Shown here: positions 10,560 through 17,363 of the stretch, one piece after another
Layout: each line of letters starts with the position of its first letter
How positions within the stretch are numbered: position 1 is the first letter of the stretch
From: Actinomycetota bacterium
GTDB lineage: Bacteria; Actinomycetota; AC-67
Assembly: GCA_036398095.1 (NCBI GenBank)
Contig: DASWHR010000027.1
Span: forward strand, 8,174-72,173
Reading direction: 5' to 3'
Length of the DNA stretch: 64,000 nucleotides
Translations under genes and position numbers: made by a program
Notes under the pieces: generated by a model
Database searches by the model: none
What the model saw: the letters and a program-made list of their open reading frames with translations, nothing else
Told to the model about the DNA's origin: nothing

Positions 10560-10934
10560 TTACGCCGGCGCGACGGCCAGCAGGCCATTCATGTCCGGAT
10601 GATTCGAGCAGTAGAAGCGGTACGTGCCCGGCTCCAGGCCGGGCACTCCGTTTACCTCGCTCACTTGGCCGGGCCCGATCTGGCCCGCCCAGAACAGCGG
10701 TGTCGCGTCGGCACGCAAGTCCTCCGAGACGATCGAATGGAAGCCGCCGACGGTGTCCGCGCTCGTGAACGTCAGCGACGCGCCCTGCTCGACCACAAGC
10801 GGCAGTTCCGGAACCTCGGTATCGCCCGGCAGGTACAGGAATGCCGCGACCGTGATAACGCCCGGCGTCGGATCGGCGGCGTGAGCGGGGACCACCCCGC
10901 TCAGGGCAAGCAGCATCGCAAGAGTGCGTCGCAC
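10560..10934 (-). CDS. cupredoxin (plastocyanin/amicyanin-like blue copper protein), secreted
   Basis: Type-1 copper ligand set H...C-x2-H-x2-M is visible (GGFHSIV ... GTYRFYCSNHPDMNG). Signal peptide VRRTLAMLLALSGVVPAHA. Start is GTG 10934 or ATG 10916. The listed ORF extends further upstream as frame noise. Confidence 0.75.
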   Translation of the reverse strand: MRRTLAMLLALSGVVPAHAADPTPGVITVAAFLYLPGDTEVPELPLVVEQGASLTFTSADTVGGFHSIVSEDLRADATPLFWAGQIGPGQVSEVNGVPGLEPGTYRFYCSNHPDMNGLLAVAPA

Positions 10935-11021
10935 GATGCTTCGTATTCGCCCTCGCAGCGTTCGGGTCCTCCCCCGTACGCTTTGATGGAACCGAACCGG
11001 TCCGGGCCGAGTCTTGACACC

Positions 11022-11537
11022 ATGGAGGATGCCGCCACGAGCCAGCGAATCGAGGCCGGTCGGCTCGAAGGGGGCCGTCTGGAGGCGTTGTATCGAACGC
11101 ACGCCGTCAAGGCGGCTCGAACGGCCTATCTGCTCACCGGAGACGCCGCGCTGGCCGACGATCTGGTGCAAGAGGCATTCGTGCGGCTCGCCGGCCGGTT
11201 CGTCGATTGGCGCCGCGAAGACGCGTTCGAAGCGTACCTTCGGCGCACCATCGTCAACCTCGCTCGGACGCGCGCGCGCCGGATGCAGCGCGAGCGCGAG
11301 CGTCACGAGCAACAGGTTGCCGCTCCGGTTCCGCCGCCGCCCGACGTCGCGGACCTGATCGCGGTGCGTGACTCGCTGATGCGCTTGACCGAGCGCCAGC
11401 GCACCGCCGTCGTGCTTCGCTACTACGAGGATCTGCCCGAAGCCGAAATCGCCGATCTGATCGGCTGCCGCCCGGGAACCGTCAAGAGCCTGCTGTCGCG
11501 TGCGATGGACACGCTGCGCGAGGAGCTATCGAGGTGA
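11022..11537 (+). CDS. ECF-type sigma-70 family RNA polymerase sigma factor
   Basis: Region 2 (AYLLTGDAALADDLVQEAFVRL) and region 4 (RQRTAVVLRYYEDLPEAEIADLIGCRPGTVKSLLSRA) are present. Trimmed to the ATG at 11022. About 171 aa. Confidence 0.85.
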   Translation: MEDAATSQRIEAGRLEGGRLEALYRTHAVKAARTAYLLTGDAALADDLVQEAFVRLAGRFVDWRREDAFEAYLRRTIVNLARTRARRMQRERERHEQQVAAPVPPPPDVADLIAVRDSLMRLTERQRTAVVLRYYEDLPEAEIADLIGCRPGTVKSLLSRAMDTLREELSR

Positions 11538-12991
11538 GAACCGTGGATATCAAGGAGAAGCTCGTCAACCTGGCCGAGAGCCAGATGCCCGCCGCGCCCG
11601 CGATCCGCCCCGCGACGCTGCGTCGCGCGAAGCGTCGCCGTGCCGCGGTCGCGGCCGCAACCTCATTCGCGGTCGTCGTCGCCGGGCTCGGCGTCTGGGC
11701 GGGTGTCGATTCTTTCTCGCGCAGCCGGCCGGTCCCGCCGGCCGCGCAGCAGGGTCGCTTCGAGACGTTTCCGCTGGCCGGTCGCGAAGCGAGCGACCTG
11801 GCCGCCTCCGGGTCGGTTGCGTGGGCTGCGGCGGGGGAGACCGTGTTTCGGCTCGGCGATACGCCGGCCACGTTCGAGATCGAAGAGCCGGTCGTGGACG
11901 TCGCGGCGGATCCACGCGGGGCGTGGGTCGCGTCGATGCGAGACGACGACCGGTGCGACGGGTCGCTCGACGTGCTGATCGATTGCGCGACGGCGACGCG
12001 GATCTCCGCCACCGGCGGCCTGGAGCGCTCGATCCCGGTTCCGCGCGCGGGCGGCGGGCTTGCGATCGGCAACGGCGTCGTCTGGATCGGCGGCCGCACC
12101 GAGGTGGTCCGGCTCAATCCTCCGGACGACCCGTTCATCGCGCCGCTTCGCGACGTCACGCGCGTTGTGGACGTGGTCACGATGCCCGGAATGGTGTTCG
12201 TGCTCGCGGAAGCGTCGGGCAATCGCGCGGACCGCGTGCTGATCGCGCTCGAAGATCACCGCGGCAGCGAGATTCGGCGTGTCCCCCTGCCGGGGGCGCT
12301 CGGCATCGCGCAAGGGCTCGGCTCATTGTGGGCGTGGGGGTCGCGGGACGAGGTCGGGGTCCTGCAGATCGAGCCGAGCAGTCTGTCGACCCTGCGCATT
12401 ATTCCGCTCGCCACCGCCCGGGAGCCGGGCGCGCCGATCGTCGTCTCATCGCTCGCGTTCTCGGGCACGACCGTCTACGCGGCCGCGTTGTTCGCCGACG
12501 AGGGACACGTGTATACGGTTGACGTCACCTCGGGCGACGTGACCGGAACGATCGCGGCGGTCGCCGCGCCCGTCGCTGCCGCGGCCGGCACGGAATCGGT
12601 GTGGCTCCTGCACGCCGAACCGGCTCGGGCGGCGCGCATGACGATTCCCGATCCGTGGGCCGCGCACGCGCCGGTCGTGTCCGGCGAGATGCAGAACGTC
12701 CCGCAGCGTCCGGGCCTTTCCACTCCGCGTATCTCCTGGGTGGACCGGTTCGAACGCGCCGGCGACGAATTGACGATCACGTTTCTCGGCGGGATGTATC
12801 CGTGCGGCATGCTCGATCACGTCGAGCTTTGGCGGGACGGCGATACGGTCAAGGTATTGGTCGTGGTGGGAACGCGGCCGGCTCCCGACGGCAATTTCGC
12901 GTGCAAATCGGTGGGTCGTAGCCGAACGACGGTCGTGCAGCTGCCGGCCGACTGGCGAAGCCTCGCCGTGGACGACGCCTCCCGCCGGTAG
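11534..12991 (+). CDS. putative membrane-anchored anti-sigma factor with large beta-propeller-like ectodomain
   Basis: GTG start overlaps the sigma stop (GTGA). There is a short cytoplasmic N-terminus, one TM (AAVAAATSFAVVVAGLGVWAGV), then about 420 aa of repeated ...VW..G....V.RL.P... blades. Confidence 0.6.
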   Translation: MRTVDIKEKLVNLAESQMPAAPAIRPATLRRAKRRRAAVAAATSFAVVVAGLGVWAGVDSFSRSRPVPPAAQQGRFETFPLAGREASDLAASGSVAWAAAGETVFRLGDTPATFEIEEPVVDVAADPRGAWVASMRDDDRCDGSLDVLIDCATATRISATGGLERSIPVPRAGGGLAIGNGVVWIGGRTEVVRLNPPDDPFIAPLRDVTRVVDVVTMPGMVFVLAEASGNRADRVLIALEDHRGSEIRRVPLPGALGIAQGLGSLWAWGSRDEVGVLQIEPSSLSTLRIIPLATAREPGAPIVVSSLAFSGTTVYAAALFADEGHVYTVDVTSGDVTGTIAAVAAPVAAAAGTESVWLLHAEPARAARMTIPDPWAAHAPVVSGEMQNVPQRPGLSTPRISWVDRFERAGDELTITFLGGMYPCGMLDHVELWRDGDTVKVLVVVGTRPAPDGNFACKSVGRSRTTVVQLPADWRSLAVDDASRR

Positions 12992-13090
12992 AGCGCGCTC
13001 CGGCGACCGCCGGTTCGATCCATGCGCCGGGCCGGCTCGAAGACCGCATGCCGCGGCGTTAATGTCACACCCTCGTTGTACGTTGTTTGC

Positions 13091-14317
13091 ATGCTTTCGG
13101 TATCGGTTTCGGAACTCGATCAAGTCACTGCCGAGCTGCATGCGGCGATCGATCGGGTGCAGCGGGTGGCCGCGCGCGCGTCGGACGGCGCGACCGATCT
13201 TGCGGTGAGCGCCTTGCGGGCCGCGGATCGCCTGACCGCGACCGCGACATCGGTCATCGCGCGCGGCGGCTTCTCCGCGGGAGCGGGACTGCCCGCACCG
13301 ATCATGCTGCAGATGGAGGCGCGCACCACAAGCTGGGATGCGCGCACCATCACCCGCATCGCCGGCATCCTTACCGGCATGCCCGACACAGCCTCCGCAT
13401 TCGAAGAAGGCGTGCTGTCTTGGTCGCAGATCCGTGCGATCACCGACGCAGCCAAACCCTGCGACACCGCCGGACGCGAACGCATCGACCGGCTCATCGC
13501 CCGCCGCGCCACGAGCCAATCCAACGCTGACCCCGACCAGATCGTCGCCGACGTCCAAGACGAAGCCGCCACCATCCGCAAGGACCTCACCGAGCGCCGC
13601 GAGCAGCGCGCCGTCGAGCAAAGTTTCATCGCATTCCAGCCGCGCCTGGACGGGCGAACCTTCTTCTACGGCGAAGGGGACCACGCCTCGGTCGCCGGCC
13701 TCGTCGACAGCCTCGACGCCGCAGCCGGCCCACCCAAACCCGACGGCCGCCCCCGCGCCCAACATCGCTACGACGCCCTCATCGCCCTCACCAGCCAAAA
13801 CCCGGGCGGCAACCGGGCGAGCAGGGCGCGGCCGCGGATCATCGCAGCCCTTGACCTTGCAGAACTCACTCGCAACGAACAGGACGCCGCCGCACGCATC
13901 CTGTGGGCCCTGACCGGCCGGCCACCACGCCTGTCACCCATCGGCACCCAAACCCTGCTCTGCGACGCCGACGTGCTCCCCATCATCTTCGACAACGGCC
14001 AACCCATCGCCATCGGCCACCCGACCTCGCCGATCCCGCGTCGCATCCGCCGCGCAATCGAAGCTCGCGACCAAGGCTGCCGATTCCCCGGCTGCCACGC
14101 TCCCCTTGACTGGACAGACCTGCACCACATCATCCACCGCATAAACGGCGGCCGATCCGCACCCGAAAACCTCATCAGCCTGTGCCGCCGCTGCCACCGG
14201 CGCATCCACGACCACGGCTGGAAAATCACCATCAACCCCGGCGGCAACATCATCTTCACCCGCCGCGGCCGCCGCTACGAAAGCCCGCCACCGACCGGCC
14301 CGCCGCTCCTCGAATGA
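13091..14317 (+). CDS. DUF222 + HNH endonuclease domain protein (REP13E12-like family)
   Basis: C-terminal HNH block (LHHIIHRINGGRSAPENLISLCRRCHRRIHDHGW) with the N-terminal domain architecture of the actinobacterial 13E12-repeat proteins. ATG at 13091. Confidence 0.8.
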   Translation: MLSVSVSELDQVTAELHAAIDRVQRVAARASDGATDLAVSALRAADRLTATATSVIARGGFSAGAGLPAPIMLQMEARTTSWDARTITRIAGILTGMPDTASAFEEGVLSWSQIRAITDAAKPCDTAGRERIDRLIARRATSQSNADPDQIVADVQDEAATIRKDLTERREQRAVEQSFIAFQPRLDGRTFFYGEGDHASVAGLVDSLDAAAGPPKPDGRPRAQHRYDALIALTSQNPGGNRASRARPRIIAALDLAELTRNEQDAAARILWALTGRPPRLSPIGTQTLLCDADVLPIIFDNGQPIAIGHPTSPIPRRIRRAIEARDQGCRFPGCHAPLDWTDLHHIIHRINGGRSAPENLISLCRRCHRRIHDHGWKITINPGGNIIFTRRGRRYESPPPTGPPLLE

Positions 14318-14329
14318 CCAGTCTCAGCG

Positions 14330-14686
14330 TTATTGCGTCAGCGATGCGACCCCGAATCCGGTGTTGAACCGCTTGCACCAGATCAGCACGCTCTTGAACG
14401 TCGAAAGGTCGGTGCCGGCCGGGATCGCGTAGTTCTGATCACCGATATTTCCTTTGAGCCGGCCCAGGTTGATTCCCGCGTCGGCGATGACGTCGTCCGC
14501 AAGTCTCGCAACGGTTATCGAACCAGGACCACGAGCACCAGCAGCGACAGTATTCCCGCAGCCGGTAGCGCGCAGCCTCCCACGGCCTTGCCGATCTTTC
14601 GCTGGCGGCCGCTTCGCGTCAACGGAATCCCGGTCGTGCGCGAAATTCGGCTCTTCGCGCGCGTCACGCCGGTGAGGCGCTTCCAT
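14330..14686 (-). pseudogene. possible frameshifted small membrane-anchored protein
   Basis: One reverse frame encodes a TM-like segment KIGKAVGGCALPAAGILSLLVLVVLVR and stops at 14515. The -1 frame continues as a protein-like domain ...ITVARLADDVIADAGINLGRLKGNIGDQNYAIPAGTDLSTFKSVLIWCKRFNTGFGVASLTQ. No single intact ORF spans both. Confidence 0.3.
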
Positions 14687-14702
14687 GAGAACCCGCCCTT
14701 GT

Positions 14703-17363
14703 TCAACGCGACAGCTCCCGCACCACGGCCGGCAGGATTCCGCCCTCGCGGAAGTAGCGCACCTCGGTCGGGGTGTCCAGCCGGCAGCGCGTGTCGAACT
14801 CGACGACCGAGCCGTCGTCGCGACGCGCGACGACCCGCAACGTCTGGCCCGGCTTCAAATCCGACAGGCCGGTGATGTCGAAGACCTCGCGGCCGGTCAA
14901 TCCCAGCAGCGCGGCCGTCTCGCCCGGCGCGAATTCCAGCGGCAGCGCACCCATCTGCGCGAGGTTCGACCGGTGGATCCGCTCGAACGACTCGGCGATG
15001 ACCGCGCGCGCGCCCAGTAACGTCGTGCCCTTCGCGGCCCAGTCGCGACTCGACCCCGACCCGTACTCCTTGCCGGCCAGGATCACAAGTGGCACGCCCG
15101 CCTCGCGATACAGAACCGACGCGTCGAAGATCGTCATCGTCTCGCCGTCCGGCAGATGCGCCGTCACGCCGCCTTCGCTGCCCGGCACGAGCAGGTTGCG
15201 CAGCCGGATGTTGGCGAACGTGCCGCGCATCATCACCTCGTGGTGGCCGCGGCGCGCGCCGTAGGAATGCAGCTTGCCCGGCGCGACGCCTCGCTCGCCC
15301 AGCCAGCGCGCCGCCGGCGAGTCTTTCGCGATCGATCCGGCCGGCGAGATGTGATCGGTCGTGACCGAGTCGCCGACGAACACCAGACAGCGCGCGCCCG
15401 TGATATCGGAAACCGGCGGCGGCTCCATTCCGATGCTTGCGACGAACGGCGGCTCGGTGATGTAGGTCGAAGACGGATCCCACTCGTACAGGTCGCCTTC
15501 GGGAACCGGCAGCGCGGCCCATCGCTCGTCGCCGGTGAACAGGCCTGCGATGCGGCTGCGATACGACTCGGGATTCATCGCGGACGCGACGGTCGAGGCG
15601 ATCTCGGAATCCGCCGGCCAGATGTCGCGCAGGAACACGGGAGCGCCACCGGAATCCAGGCCGAGCGGCTCGGTGTTGAGATCGATGTCGACCGTTCCCG
15701 CCAGGGCATAGGCGACGACCAGCGGCGGCGAACCGAGGAAGGAGAACCGAACCTGCGGATGGATGCGGCCTTCGAAGTTGCGGTTGCCGCTCAGAACGGC
15801 CGCGACGGCAAGCGCGTTCTCGTCCACCGCCTCGGCGATCGGATCCAGCAGCGGACCGGAGTTACCAATACAAGTGGTACATCCAAAGCCGACCGCGAAG
15901 AAGCCGATCTTCTCCAGATCGTCGAGCAGGCCGGCGCGCTTCAGATAGTCGATCACGACCGGGGAACCCGGCGCCAAGGACGTCTTGACCGCCGGATCCA
16001 CGCGCAGGCCGCGTGCGACCGCGTTGCGCGCCAGCAGACCCGCGCCGATCATTACCGACGGATTCGAGGTGTTCGTGCACGAGGTGATCGCCGCGATCGC
16101 GACCGTGCCGTCCCCGACGTGCGTCGAGCCGGCCGGCAGCGACACCGGGATCTTTCTGATCGCCGGCTCGCCGTCTTCATCGCGCAGCGCCGCCAATTCG
16201 CGGCGGAACGTGCGGCCGACCTCGCCGACGACGACGCGATCTTGCGGCCGGCGCGGCCCGGCGAGGGACGGCTCGATCGTGGACAGGTCCAGGTCGAGCA
16301 TCTCGCCGAACACGGGCTCGGCGCCGTGATCGTGCCAGAGTTGCTGCTCCTTGCAGTAGCGTTCGACCAGATCGACCAGGTCGTCGCTGCGGCCGGTCGC
16401 GCGCAGGTAGGCGATCGTCTGCGCATCGACGGGGAAGAAGCCCTCCGTCGCGCCGTACTCGGGCGACATGTTCGCGATCGTGGCGCGGTCGGGGACGGTC
16501 AAGGCCGCCAGGCCCGGCCCGTAGAACTCGACGAACTTTCCGACGACGCCGTGTGCGCGCAGCATCTCGGTCAGCGTCAGCACCAGATCGGTTGCCGTTG
16601 CGCCCGAGGGCATCGAGCCGGACAGCTTCAAGCCGACGACGGCCGGGGTCAGCATTGTGACCGGCTCGCCCAGCATCGCCGCTTCGGCTTCGATGCCGCC
16701 CACGCCCCAGCCGAGCACGCCCAGCCCGCCGATCATCGTGGTGTGCGAGTCGGTGCCGACGAGCGTGTCGGGATAGGCGACACCGTCGGCGCCGGTCATG
16801 ACCACGTCGGCGAGAAACTCCAAGTTGACCTGATGCACGATCCCGCTTCCCGGGGGCACGACTCGCATCTTTCGGAACGACTTCTGGGCCCATCGAAGGA
16901 ACGCGTAGCGTTCGCCGTTGCGCTCGTACTCCAATCCGACGTTGCGTTCGAAGGCTTCGCGCGAGCCGAAGAAGTCGACGATCACCGAATGGTCGATCAC
17001 CAGGTCGACGGGTACGCGCGGGTTGACGCGCGAGGTGTCTCCGCCGAGTCGCTCGACTGCGCCGCGGATCGCGGCCAGATCGGCCACGACCGGCACGCCG
17101 GTGAAGTCCTGCAGCACGACGCGTCCCGGCAGAAACGGAAACTCGACGGCGGTGTCACCGGGCCAGTCTGCGAGCGCGTCCAGATGCAACCGCTCCGCGC
17201 CGGCGCCCTGATGGCGCAGCACGTTTTCGAGGAAGATGCGCACGACGAACGGCAGCCGCGCGATCGCGCCCGCATCCAGAACGCGATCAAGACGGTAGAG
17301 CGCGACGCTGCCGCCGCCGGCCTGCAGCCGGTCCAGCGCGCCGAGCGGGTCGTTGAGGCTCAT
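14703..17363 (-). CDS. acnA: aconitate hydratase A
   Basis: Full-length aconitase (~886 aa) with Fe-S ligand motifs SCTNTSN and GCTTCIGNSG and the C-terminal swivel domain. Trimmed to MSLNDPLG at 17363. Confidence 0.95.
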   Translation of the reverse strand: MSLNDPLGALDRLQAGGGSVALYRLDRVLDAGAIARLPFVVRIFLENVLRHQGAGAERLHLDALADWPGDTAVEFPFLPGRVVLQDFTGVPVVADLAAIRGAVERLGGDTSRVNPRVPVDLVIDHSVIVDFFGSREAFERNVGLEYERNGERYAFLRWAQKSFRKMRVVPPGSGIVHQVNLEFLADVVMTGADGVAYPDTLVGTDSHTTMIGGLGVLGWGVGGIEAEAAMLGEPVTMLTPAVVGLKLSGSMPSGATATDLVLTLTEMLRAHGVVGKFVEFYGPGLAALTVPDRATIANMSPEYGATEGFFPVDAQTIAYLRATGRSDDLVDLVERYCKEQQLWHDHGAEPVFGEMLDLDLSTIEPSLAGPRRPQDRVVVGEVGRTFRRELAALRDEDGEPAIRKIPVSLPAGSTHVGDGTVAIAAITSCTNTSNPSVMIGAGLLARNAVARGLRVDPAVKTSLAPGSPVVIDYLKRAGLLDDLEKIGFFAVGFGCTTCIGNSGPLLDPIAEAVDENALAVAAVLSGNRNFEGRIHPQVRFSFLGSPPLVVAYALAGTVDIDLNTEPLGLDSGGAPVFLRDIWPADSEIASTVASAMNPESYRSRIAGLFTGDERWAALPVPEGDLYEWDPSSTYITEPPFVASIGMEPPPVSDITGARCLVFVGDSVTTDHISPAGSIAKDSPAARWLGERGVAPGKLHSYGARRGHHEVMMRGTFANIRLRNLLVPGSEGGVTAHLPDGETMTIFDASVLYREAGVPLVILAGKEYGSGSSRDWAAKGTTLLGARAVIAESFERIHRSNLAQMGALPLEFAPGETAALLGLTGREVFDITGLSDLKPGQTLRVVARRDDGSVVEFDTRCRLDTPTEVRYFREGGILPAVVRELSR

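Follow-up and report, generated by a model that had tools for sequence, protein, structure and literature searches.

A DUF222-HNH gene behind a RecA-NDp-type promoter, an intact small membrane-protein gene, and a DM13 gene relic lie side by side in an uncultured lineage of Actinomycetota

The closest described counterparts of the gene reported here are the 13E12/REP13E12 genes of Mycobacterium tuberculosis (for example, Rv1128c, Rv1148c, Rv1945, and Rv2100), which have the same combination of DUF222 and HNH domains as judged by Pfam models. [quoted passage not shown] The RecA-NDp motif, with the consensus tTGTCRgtg-8 nt-TAnnnT (PMC5656591), is the site at which PafBC acts as an activator (PMC6789036, PMC8223512).

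We examined a 64,000-nt stretch of high-GC DNA (68% GC; the window) that carries a gene of this type and whose host, in contrast to that of the M. tuberculosis genes, is an uncultured, deep-branching Actinomycetota MAG. The gene resembles 13E12 in being probably multi-copy in its genome and in having a RecA-NDp motif upstream (PMC3381160), and its copies show signs of sequence exchange with one another, as at REP13E12 (PMC13061034). Biological function is undefined in both. REP13E12 in the strict sense is a nucleotide repeat of approximately 1.4 kb that reaches beyond the ORF; the copies compared here appear to share the promoter and ORF only. Also unlike the M. tuberculosis elements, the locus showed neither a prophage nor an integrase or att site, no conserved LexA box was found, and the window copy is syntenic across species. 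Compared with the promoters of the PafBC/RecA-NDp regulon, the window motif fits the consensus and abuts the start codon, the evidence here being the motif sequence and its conservation.

Free-standing HNH homing endonuclease genes of phages are likewise gene-sized, have their own promoter, and lack terminal repeats; like them, the HNH copies described here sit at varied intergenic sites, between housekeeping genes. In contrast to the phage genes, neither a cognate target site nor an HNH-less allele was identified here, and almost no relatives are present in phage and plasmid collections, the similarity to phage families being confined to the HNH motif. The features of an insertion sequence or transposon (terminal inverted repeats, target-site duplication, and transposase) were not found here. 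Finally, the tail of one feature is like that of DM13 proteins (PF10517), but the anchor, positions 1 to 55, and start codon are missing, making it a relic rather than a member protein.

The locus consists of three separate features side by side: the DUF222-HNH gene, an intact 63-aa gene, and the dead 3' relic of a DM13 gene (Table 1). A first-pass annotation had suggested that the last two are one membrane-protein gene disrupted by a 1-nt frameshift, perhaps the scar of an element insertion or a sequencing error. We consider it highly probable that the locus is best explained by an intact HNH gene with a damage promoter, a 63-aa gene coupled to its neighbor, and a DM13 relic left by deletion. 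The DUF222-HNH gene belongs to a known multi-copy family; otherwise the locus is ordinary and shows ordinary genome wear, with neither a frameshift nor a sequencing error, and its main value is to correct those two interpretations. No Rfam families or terminators were found in positions 12500 to 15000. Nucleotide and protein comparisons between loci were made with blastn and tblastn.

Table 1. Features of the locus in window coordinates, and content of the HNH-aconitase interval in the window and in related contigs
Feature	Position	Strand	Basis or content
ECF sigma factor	11022-11537	+	Left flank of HNH slot, conserved
Anti-sigma-like gene, 485 aa	11534-12991	+	Left flank of HNH slot, conserved
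RecA-NDp-type promoter motif, TGTCACACCCTCGTTGTACGTT	13063-13084	+	Pattern TGTCR-N3-N8-TAnnnT
DUF222-HNH gene, 408 aa, intact	13091-14317	+	Pfam; exact protein P0121
DUF222 region	~13331-14071	+	Pfam
HNH motif	~14090-14212	+	Pfam
DM13-domain gene 3' fragment, 55 codons and stop	14330-14497	-	Pseudogene relic, own start codon absent
118-aa ORF (P0001), "DM13" gene in JGI data	14330-14686	-	Probable chimeric ORF
Junction, 17 nt	14498-14514	-	From stop codon of 63-aa gene to first DM13-homologous base
63-aa membrane-protein gene, intact	14515-14706	-	MNKGGFSWKRLTGVTRAKSRISRTTGIPLTRSGRQRKIGK...C and TM helix; homologues, synteny
Aconitase gene	14703-17363	-	Pfam match 2e-156; synteny anchor
Interval, window			DM13 relic and 63-aa gene
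Interval, L092			592-aa gene
Interval, L175			608-aa gene and GNAT, without 63-aa gene
Interval, L090/L091			After aconitase: 63-aa gene, GNAT, full DM13, then convergent PIN/RHH pair

Both domains of the DUF222-HNH protein score above their Pfam cut-offs, DUF222 at 1.1e-16 (61.5 bits against 24.4) over profile positions 51 to 306 of 306 and HNH at 5.2e-9 (36.5 bits against 21.4). In an alignment of 16 homologues, C330, C335, H345, H346, C365, C368, H369, and H373 never vary, and N360 hardly does. The four zinc-binding cysteines make up two CxxC-type ligand pairs, and the His/Asn/His set corresponds to the catalytic residues of HNH. Pairs of HNH genes give dN/dS values of 0.23 to 0.39 (approximately 0.3), which, together with the domains and the retained catalytic residues, indicates that the gene is intact and under purifying selection. 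Its start at 13091 is backed by a conserved ML N terminus and by the location of the promoter inside the longer ORF that begins at 13022.

An AlphaFold model of the protein has a pLDDT of 69. Comparison with the PDB by Foldseek gave matches through the HNH motif only, to the Gme HNH nickase 4h9d (probability of 0.99), TagI, and McrA, and no solved relative of the helical DUF222 part was found there. Searches of NCBIfam, PADLOC, and PHROGs returned weak matches to the HNH motif only, phage and plasmid collections gave one weak match each, and Pfam identified no transposase domain. The product would be a zinc-containing beta-beta-alpha-metal nuclease whose target may be set by the helical DUF222 domain; the nuclease activity is a prediction.

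The sequence upstream of the gene, TGTCA-cac-8 nt-TACGTT, fits the RecA-NDp consensus, with (T/C)AC following TGTCR where the consensus has gtg. It is the only match to the pattern in the 64-kb window, both strands counted (0.4 expected). The motif is present with fixed spacing in all seven copies examined (window, L001, L092, L175, L176, L178, and L089), and the 35 nt before the ATG are conserved among these seven, the copies with the 5' end at hand. More distant family loci have the motif upstream in 8 of 69 cases against approximately 0.07 expected, and in 7 of those 8 the ATG lies 6 to 7 nt past the -10 element. In the window copy, 6 nt separate the end of the -10 element from the A of the ATG, so a leaderless HNH transcript is predicted.

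The motif and its conservation make damage induction of the HNH gene a natural prediction. Most likely, the gene would be silent in normal growth, and a PafBC-type activator would switch on the leaderless mRNA after DNA damage. The 13E12-type link between DUF222-HNH genes and RecA-NDp promoters extends to an uncultured lineage of Actinomycetota, in which the position of the -10 element 6 to 7 nt before the ATG predicts that transcripts start at that codon. This promoter offers a simple, testable handle on a family with undefined function. A LexA-box-like site with two mismatches is present at 13003 to 13018; 16 such sites occur in the window, so that it is not specific, and the paralogs do not conserve it.

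The HNH gene occupies a slot with the order TetR, 641-aa gene, 177-aa gene, cupredoxin, ECF sigma, anti-sigma-like, HNH, variable interval, and aconitase. The same slot holds an HNH gene of approximately 58% identity in L092 (GCA_035541035.1) and L175 (SRR29054605), whose flanking proteins are 46 to 92% identical to those of the window and whose aconitase is 91 to 92% identical. This shared occupancy indicates that the window copy has long been in its slot; synonymous divergence of the HNH gene from L092 and L175 is saturated (dS of approximately 1). Conserved synteny had been proposed as a refutation of the repeat-element idea if the gene were single-copy; the synteny is there, but the gene belongs to a multi-copy family as well, and the observation cuts both ways.

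The assignment to a multi-copy family was borne out by paralogs at unrelated loci. A copy with 87% identity (P0122, L001-L003), from the same samples, has a peptidase M15 gene on one side and another ECF sigma gene on the other, and copies with 59% and 57% identity adjoin a thiamine operon and an ileS/divIVA cell-division cluster, respectively. Five NCBI proteins (HEX9695157, HEX9695334, HEX9695693, HEX9695900, and HEX9696041) fall within 884 accession numbers of one another; judged by this closeness, five or more DUF222-HNH copies are probably present in the source MAG. A related MAG has three copies at three loci (HVL90312, HVL91271, and HVL91606). The search for further copies that had been suggested found them at other loci, and none in the rest of the 64-kb window by blastn and tblastn.

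The window copy and the 87% copy are 90% identical over 1,168 nt, and their homology runs from approximately 33 nt upstream of the ATG to approximately 15 nt before the stop codon, suggesting that the duplicated unit is a bare promoter-plus-ORF cassette. The other copies are similar at the protein level only. The HNH gene may thus travel as a compact cassette of approximately 1.25 kb (approximately 13058 to 14300) without terminal repeats. No terminal inverted repeats or target-site duplication were found around it. The att-like repeats that the first-pass annotation had thought worth seeking on either side did not materialize beyond short direct or inverted ones at chance level, such as a 13-nt repeat with 12/13 matches at 12984 and 14561. 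No tRNA gene was found as an integration target, nor were integrase or prophage genes within approximately 6 kb.

Divergence between these two close copies is uneven: the first 40 codons have a pS of 0.60 and a pN of 0.28, whereas pS in the remainder is 0.07 to 0.33. By analogy with REP13E12, such a 5'-diverged mosaic fits gene conversion. The family also spreads to new loci by duplication, and its copies probably exchange sequence by conversion.

Codon usage changes within the gene as well. From approximately 13300 to the HNH stop codon, third codon positions are 60 to 82% C and 2.5 to 20% G, and in this G-poor part the gene prefers CAA, GAA, and AAA over their G-ending synonyms. Third positions are normal in the first 240 nt of the gene and in all neighboring genes. 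The 87% copy has the same switch, and the syntenic orthologues and other paralogs show a weak trend. For the G-poor gene body, the simplest idea is a putative allele of foreign or converted origin. G-poor third positions as a family-wide trait were considered and rejected, the mean skew over 75 loci being -0.093, compared with -0.099 for the flanks (P = 0.96). The family-wide statistics drew on a scan of genome contigs, in which the best match was 43% identical.

Downstream of the HNH gene, positions 14318 to 14702 had been described as lacking an intact ORF. A complete 63-aa ORF is in fact present on the minus strand, with a TTG start 4 nt beyond that limit that overlaps the aconitase TGA as TTGA. 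Its translation begins MNKGGFSWKRLTGVTRAKSRISRTTGIPLTRSGRQRKIGKAVGGC and continues into a TM helix. It has 824 homologues, mostly of approximately 70 aa, and free-standing proteins of 63 to 83 aa match it at 1e-16 to 1e-17. L090 has a 63-aa homologue directly behind its aconitase gene, again overlapping it by 4 nt (as GTGA) and with the same ...VR* end. The 63-aa gene is probably translationally coupled to aconitase.

The DM13 relic matches PF10517 at 3e-12 over positions 56 to 105 of 105 only, and positions 1 to 55 are encoded in no frame. P0002 and P0003, full-length DM13 relatives of 168 to 169 aa, are 87 to 89% identical to it over the fragment and carry their own N terminus, a TM segment (FVLVWFQPQKLF), and the first domain half. 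The window lacks a DM13 N terminus, anchor, and first domain half in all frames; by alignment with P0003, approximately 113 N-terminal residues are missing. The 55 residues of the relic share 76 to 89% identity with the C-terminal ends of full-length DM13 proteins. At the nucleotide level, homology to the DM13 genes of the five relatives L087-L091 sets in abruptly, at 14497 or 14470, and stops at 14329 or 14340, slightly beyond or slightly short of the DM13 stop codon. The tail has hardly decayed (pN/pS of 0.12 to 0.13 against L088 and L089), indicating that the truncation is recent relative to the divergences from those two. The relic is therefore the scar of a deletion or rearrangement that removed approximately 113 codons rather than one base.

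These observations bear on whether a single membrane-anchored DM13 gene was broken by a frameshift, real or a sequencing error, at approximately 14510 to 14520. The first-pass annotation was right that adjacent minus-strand frames encode a TM helix in one and a domain in the other (here identified as approximately 57 aa of DM13), and membrane anchoring is normal for DM13 proteins, but the two do not belong to one gene. Each frame matches a separate protein family, indicating two different genes: the TM frame is a complete homologue of the free-standing small proteins, with the L090-type end, and true DM13 relatives use another anchor and have a different N terminus besides the first half that is lost here. 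No protein combining DM13 and the GFSWKR module of the small proteins was seen among the DM13-containing matches read within the 120 listed. As for sequencing error, positions 12000 to 16000 recur with 100% identity in three further assemblies (ENA ERZ27256989, ENA ERZ27256991, and JGI 3300033417), each of which differs from the window elsewhere by 4 to 19 substitutions and, in the JGI assembly, also by a 1-nt deletion. Because four independent assemblies that differ elsewhere agree here, an assembly error is unlikely, and we give the frameshift reading next to no credence. The 118-aa ORF is probably no gene: it fuses the DM13 tail to a stretch of the 63-aa gene read out of frame. The relic has no in-frame start before the ATG at 14686, inside the 63-aa gene. 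For annotation, the 118-aa "DM13" call is likely chimeric, and the true 63-aa gene is missed by some pipelines.

The content of the HNH-aconitase interval is different in every lineage examined, and the interval may be prone to rearrangement. The simplest derivation of the window is one deletion from an L090-like gene order; the contigs of L090 and L091 are short, and the HNH gene lies outside them. By the size of the L090 arrangement, such a deletion of approximately 1.2 to 1.3 kb would have taken GNAT and the first two thirds of DM13, and the leftover tail would have landed 17 nt past the stop codon of the 63-aa gene. The 17-nt junction has no significant match to the GNAT gene or to the intergenic sequences of relatives, and microhomology there does not exceed shuffled controls. 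An 8-mer common to the junction and the GNAT gene of L090 was put down to chance. No closer intact relative that would fix the breakpoints was found, and metagenome contigs searched with a DM13 alignment yielded, among the matches listed, relatives of 41 to 54% identity in unrelated contexts.

Alternatively, the relic could be a piece of a cupredoxin-linked DM13 gene displaced by approximately 3.4 kb, through movement across the locus of either the relic itself or the sigma/anti-sigma/HNH block. L088 has a full DM13 gene between its cupredoxin and ECF sigma genes, where the window has none, and is closest to the window at two of three shared flanking genes: hyp177 and cupredoxin are 75% and 73% identical in L088 against 63 to 66% and 49 to 51% in L092 and L175, with the ECF sigma factor equally similar in all three (81 to 83%). 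In L089, a DM13 gene follows cupredoxin, and an HNH gene in divergent orientation comes next. The pN of the relic is 0.05 against the cupredoxin-linked DM13 genes of L088 and L089 and 0.13 against the aconitase/GNAT-linked gene of L090, and this grouping at the amino acid level makes relocation possible. However, displacement takes two or more events, where a single deletion from the L090-like order would do. DM13 is also missing between cupredoxin and sigma in L092 and L175, which may be the ancestral state, and 55 codons give low power to separate the two origins. We regard displacement as a possible but rather unlikely origin. That the HNH cassette is a recent mobile insertion, and that its insertion or its nuclease caused the loss of GNAT and the DM13 5' end, seems to us improbable. 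The family does change loci, the 3' interval varies by lineage while the 5' flank stays conserved, and L089 also has an HNH gene beside a DM13 gene. Against this, the arrival of the HNH gene, with its saturated synonymous divergence from L092 and L175, long predates the scarcely decayed relic, the deleted DM13 end is the one far from the HNH gene, and the target-site duplication and terminal repeats of an insertion are lacking. With that end distal and the HNH gene much older in the slot, there is no evidence that the gene caused the scar. An insertion scar, as first suggested, is also not borne out by L092 and L175, which hold the HNH gene in the same slot and lack the relic. A broader and quite doubtful idea is that DUF222-HNH cassettes are damage-triggered selfish nuclease genes, moving as bare units, whose cleavage would destabilize adjacent 3' DNA and create a hotspot where genes are lost and gained; this activity would have left the DM13/GNAT deletion as one footprint, and the G-poor codons would mark an imported or converted allele. 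We favor the single deletion beside a long-resident HNH gene.

The small membrane protein belongs to an unnamed GFSWKR family, for which Pfam, NCBIfam, PADLOC, and PHROGs hold no curated model. Its members have the N-terminal pattern MNKGGFSWKR...GIPLT(K/R)SGRQRK, followed by GGC and one TM helix, in approximately 63 to 83 aa, and the window protein has this organization. The GFSWKR module is also found at the N terminus of rhodanese, Excalibur, and SLH proteins, where it serves as an anchor.

The DUF222-HNH (13E12-like) gene of the window and its 87%-identical copy, which lies in an unrelated context at locus L001, do not diverge evenly along their length. Over the first 40 codons (window 13091-13210 versus L001 8001-8120), synonymous divergence (pS) is 0.60, on par with distant paralogs, whereas the remainder of the gene is close, with pS values of 0.07 to 0.33. 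This shift in the sequence comparison suggests the edge of a gene-conversion tract near codon 40 of the pair. The window gene also shows extreme avoidance of G at third codon positions, with a sharp onset at approximately codon 70 to 80; beyond this point, G3 is 2.5 to 20%, C3 is 60 to 82%, and A3 is raised. The 87% copy has the same avoidance, which is absent from the genes neighboring the window HNH gene, and most other DUF222-HNH family members show a weak trend at most. Upstream, a LexA SOS-box-like site lies 45 nt before the RecA-NDp promoter motif. The paralogs show no conservation of this site, and 16 sites of that grade (2 mismatches) occur within the window.

Comparison of the window with loci L092, L175, and L090 of relatives shows that the cargo between the HNH and aconitase genes changes with lineage, and the left flank of this variable interval is kept in all lineages compared. 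One type of cargo is a gene for a protein of 592 or 608 aa, with a weak DUF3592 hit as its sole family match; the other types are a GNAT gene, DM13, and a PIN/RHH toxin-antitoxin pair.

Features of the HNH gene region and its counterparts (window positions unless a locus is named)
Feature	Position	Strand	Remark
LexA SOS-box-like site GCGACCGCCGGTTCGA	13003-13018	+	2 mismatches
G-poor third positions	13300-14317; L001 8240-9218	+ (window)	codon composition
HNH-aconitase interval	14318-14702; L092 9186-11084; L175 4796-7464; L090 255-2416
Cupredoxin/DM13 region	10560-11021; L088 448-1511; L089 708-1672
63-aa GFSWKR-motif membrane protein	14515-14706	-	L090 counterpart 63-254
485-aa gene	11534-12991	+	overlaps stop of ECF sigma gene

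In the window and in L090, representing two lineages, the 63-aa membrane-protein gene begins with a 4-nt overlap between its start and the aconitase stop. Its GFSWKR family is widespread (824 matches) but has no model in Pfam, NCBIfam, PHROG, or PADLOC; rhodanese, Excalibur, SLH, and further domains are also found with this module as their N-terminal anchor. Public gene calls treat this interval differently: the ENA calls for the same sequence leave it entirely empty, and a JGI call, P0001 (118 aa, 14330-14686, reverse strand), is labeled DM13. P0001 is a chimeric ORF in which the 63-aa gene is read out of frame.

In L088 and L089, both from relatives, the cupredoxin gene is immediately preceded by a full DM13 gene of the same orientation; no such neighbor accompanies the cupredoxin gene of L092, L175, or the window itself. 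DM13 and cupredoxin may form a functional pair that was lost from, or relocated in, the window. The 485-aa gene, for which Pfam, NCBIfam, and PADLOC give no family match, probably encodes a fast-evolving partner, either an anti-sigma factor or a sensor. Among relatives it is only 46 to 48% identical, compared to 81 to 83% for the ECF sigma factor.
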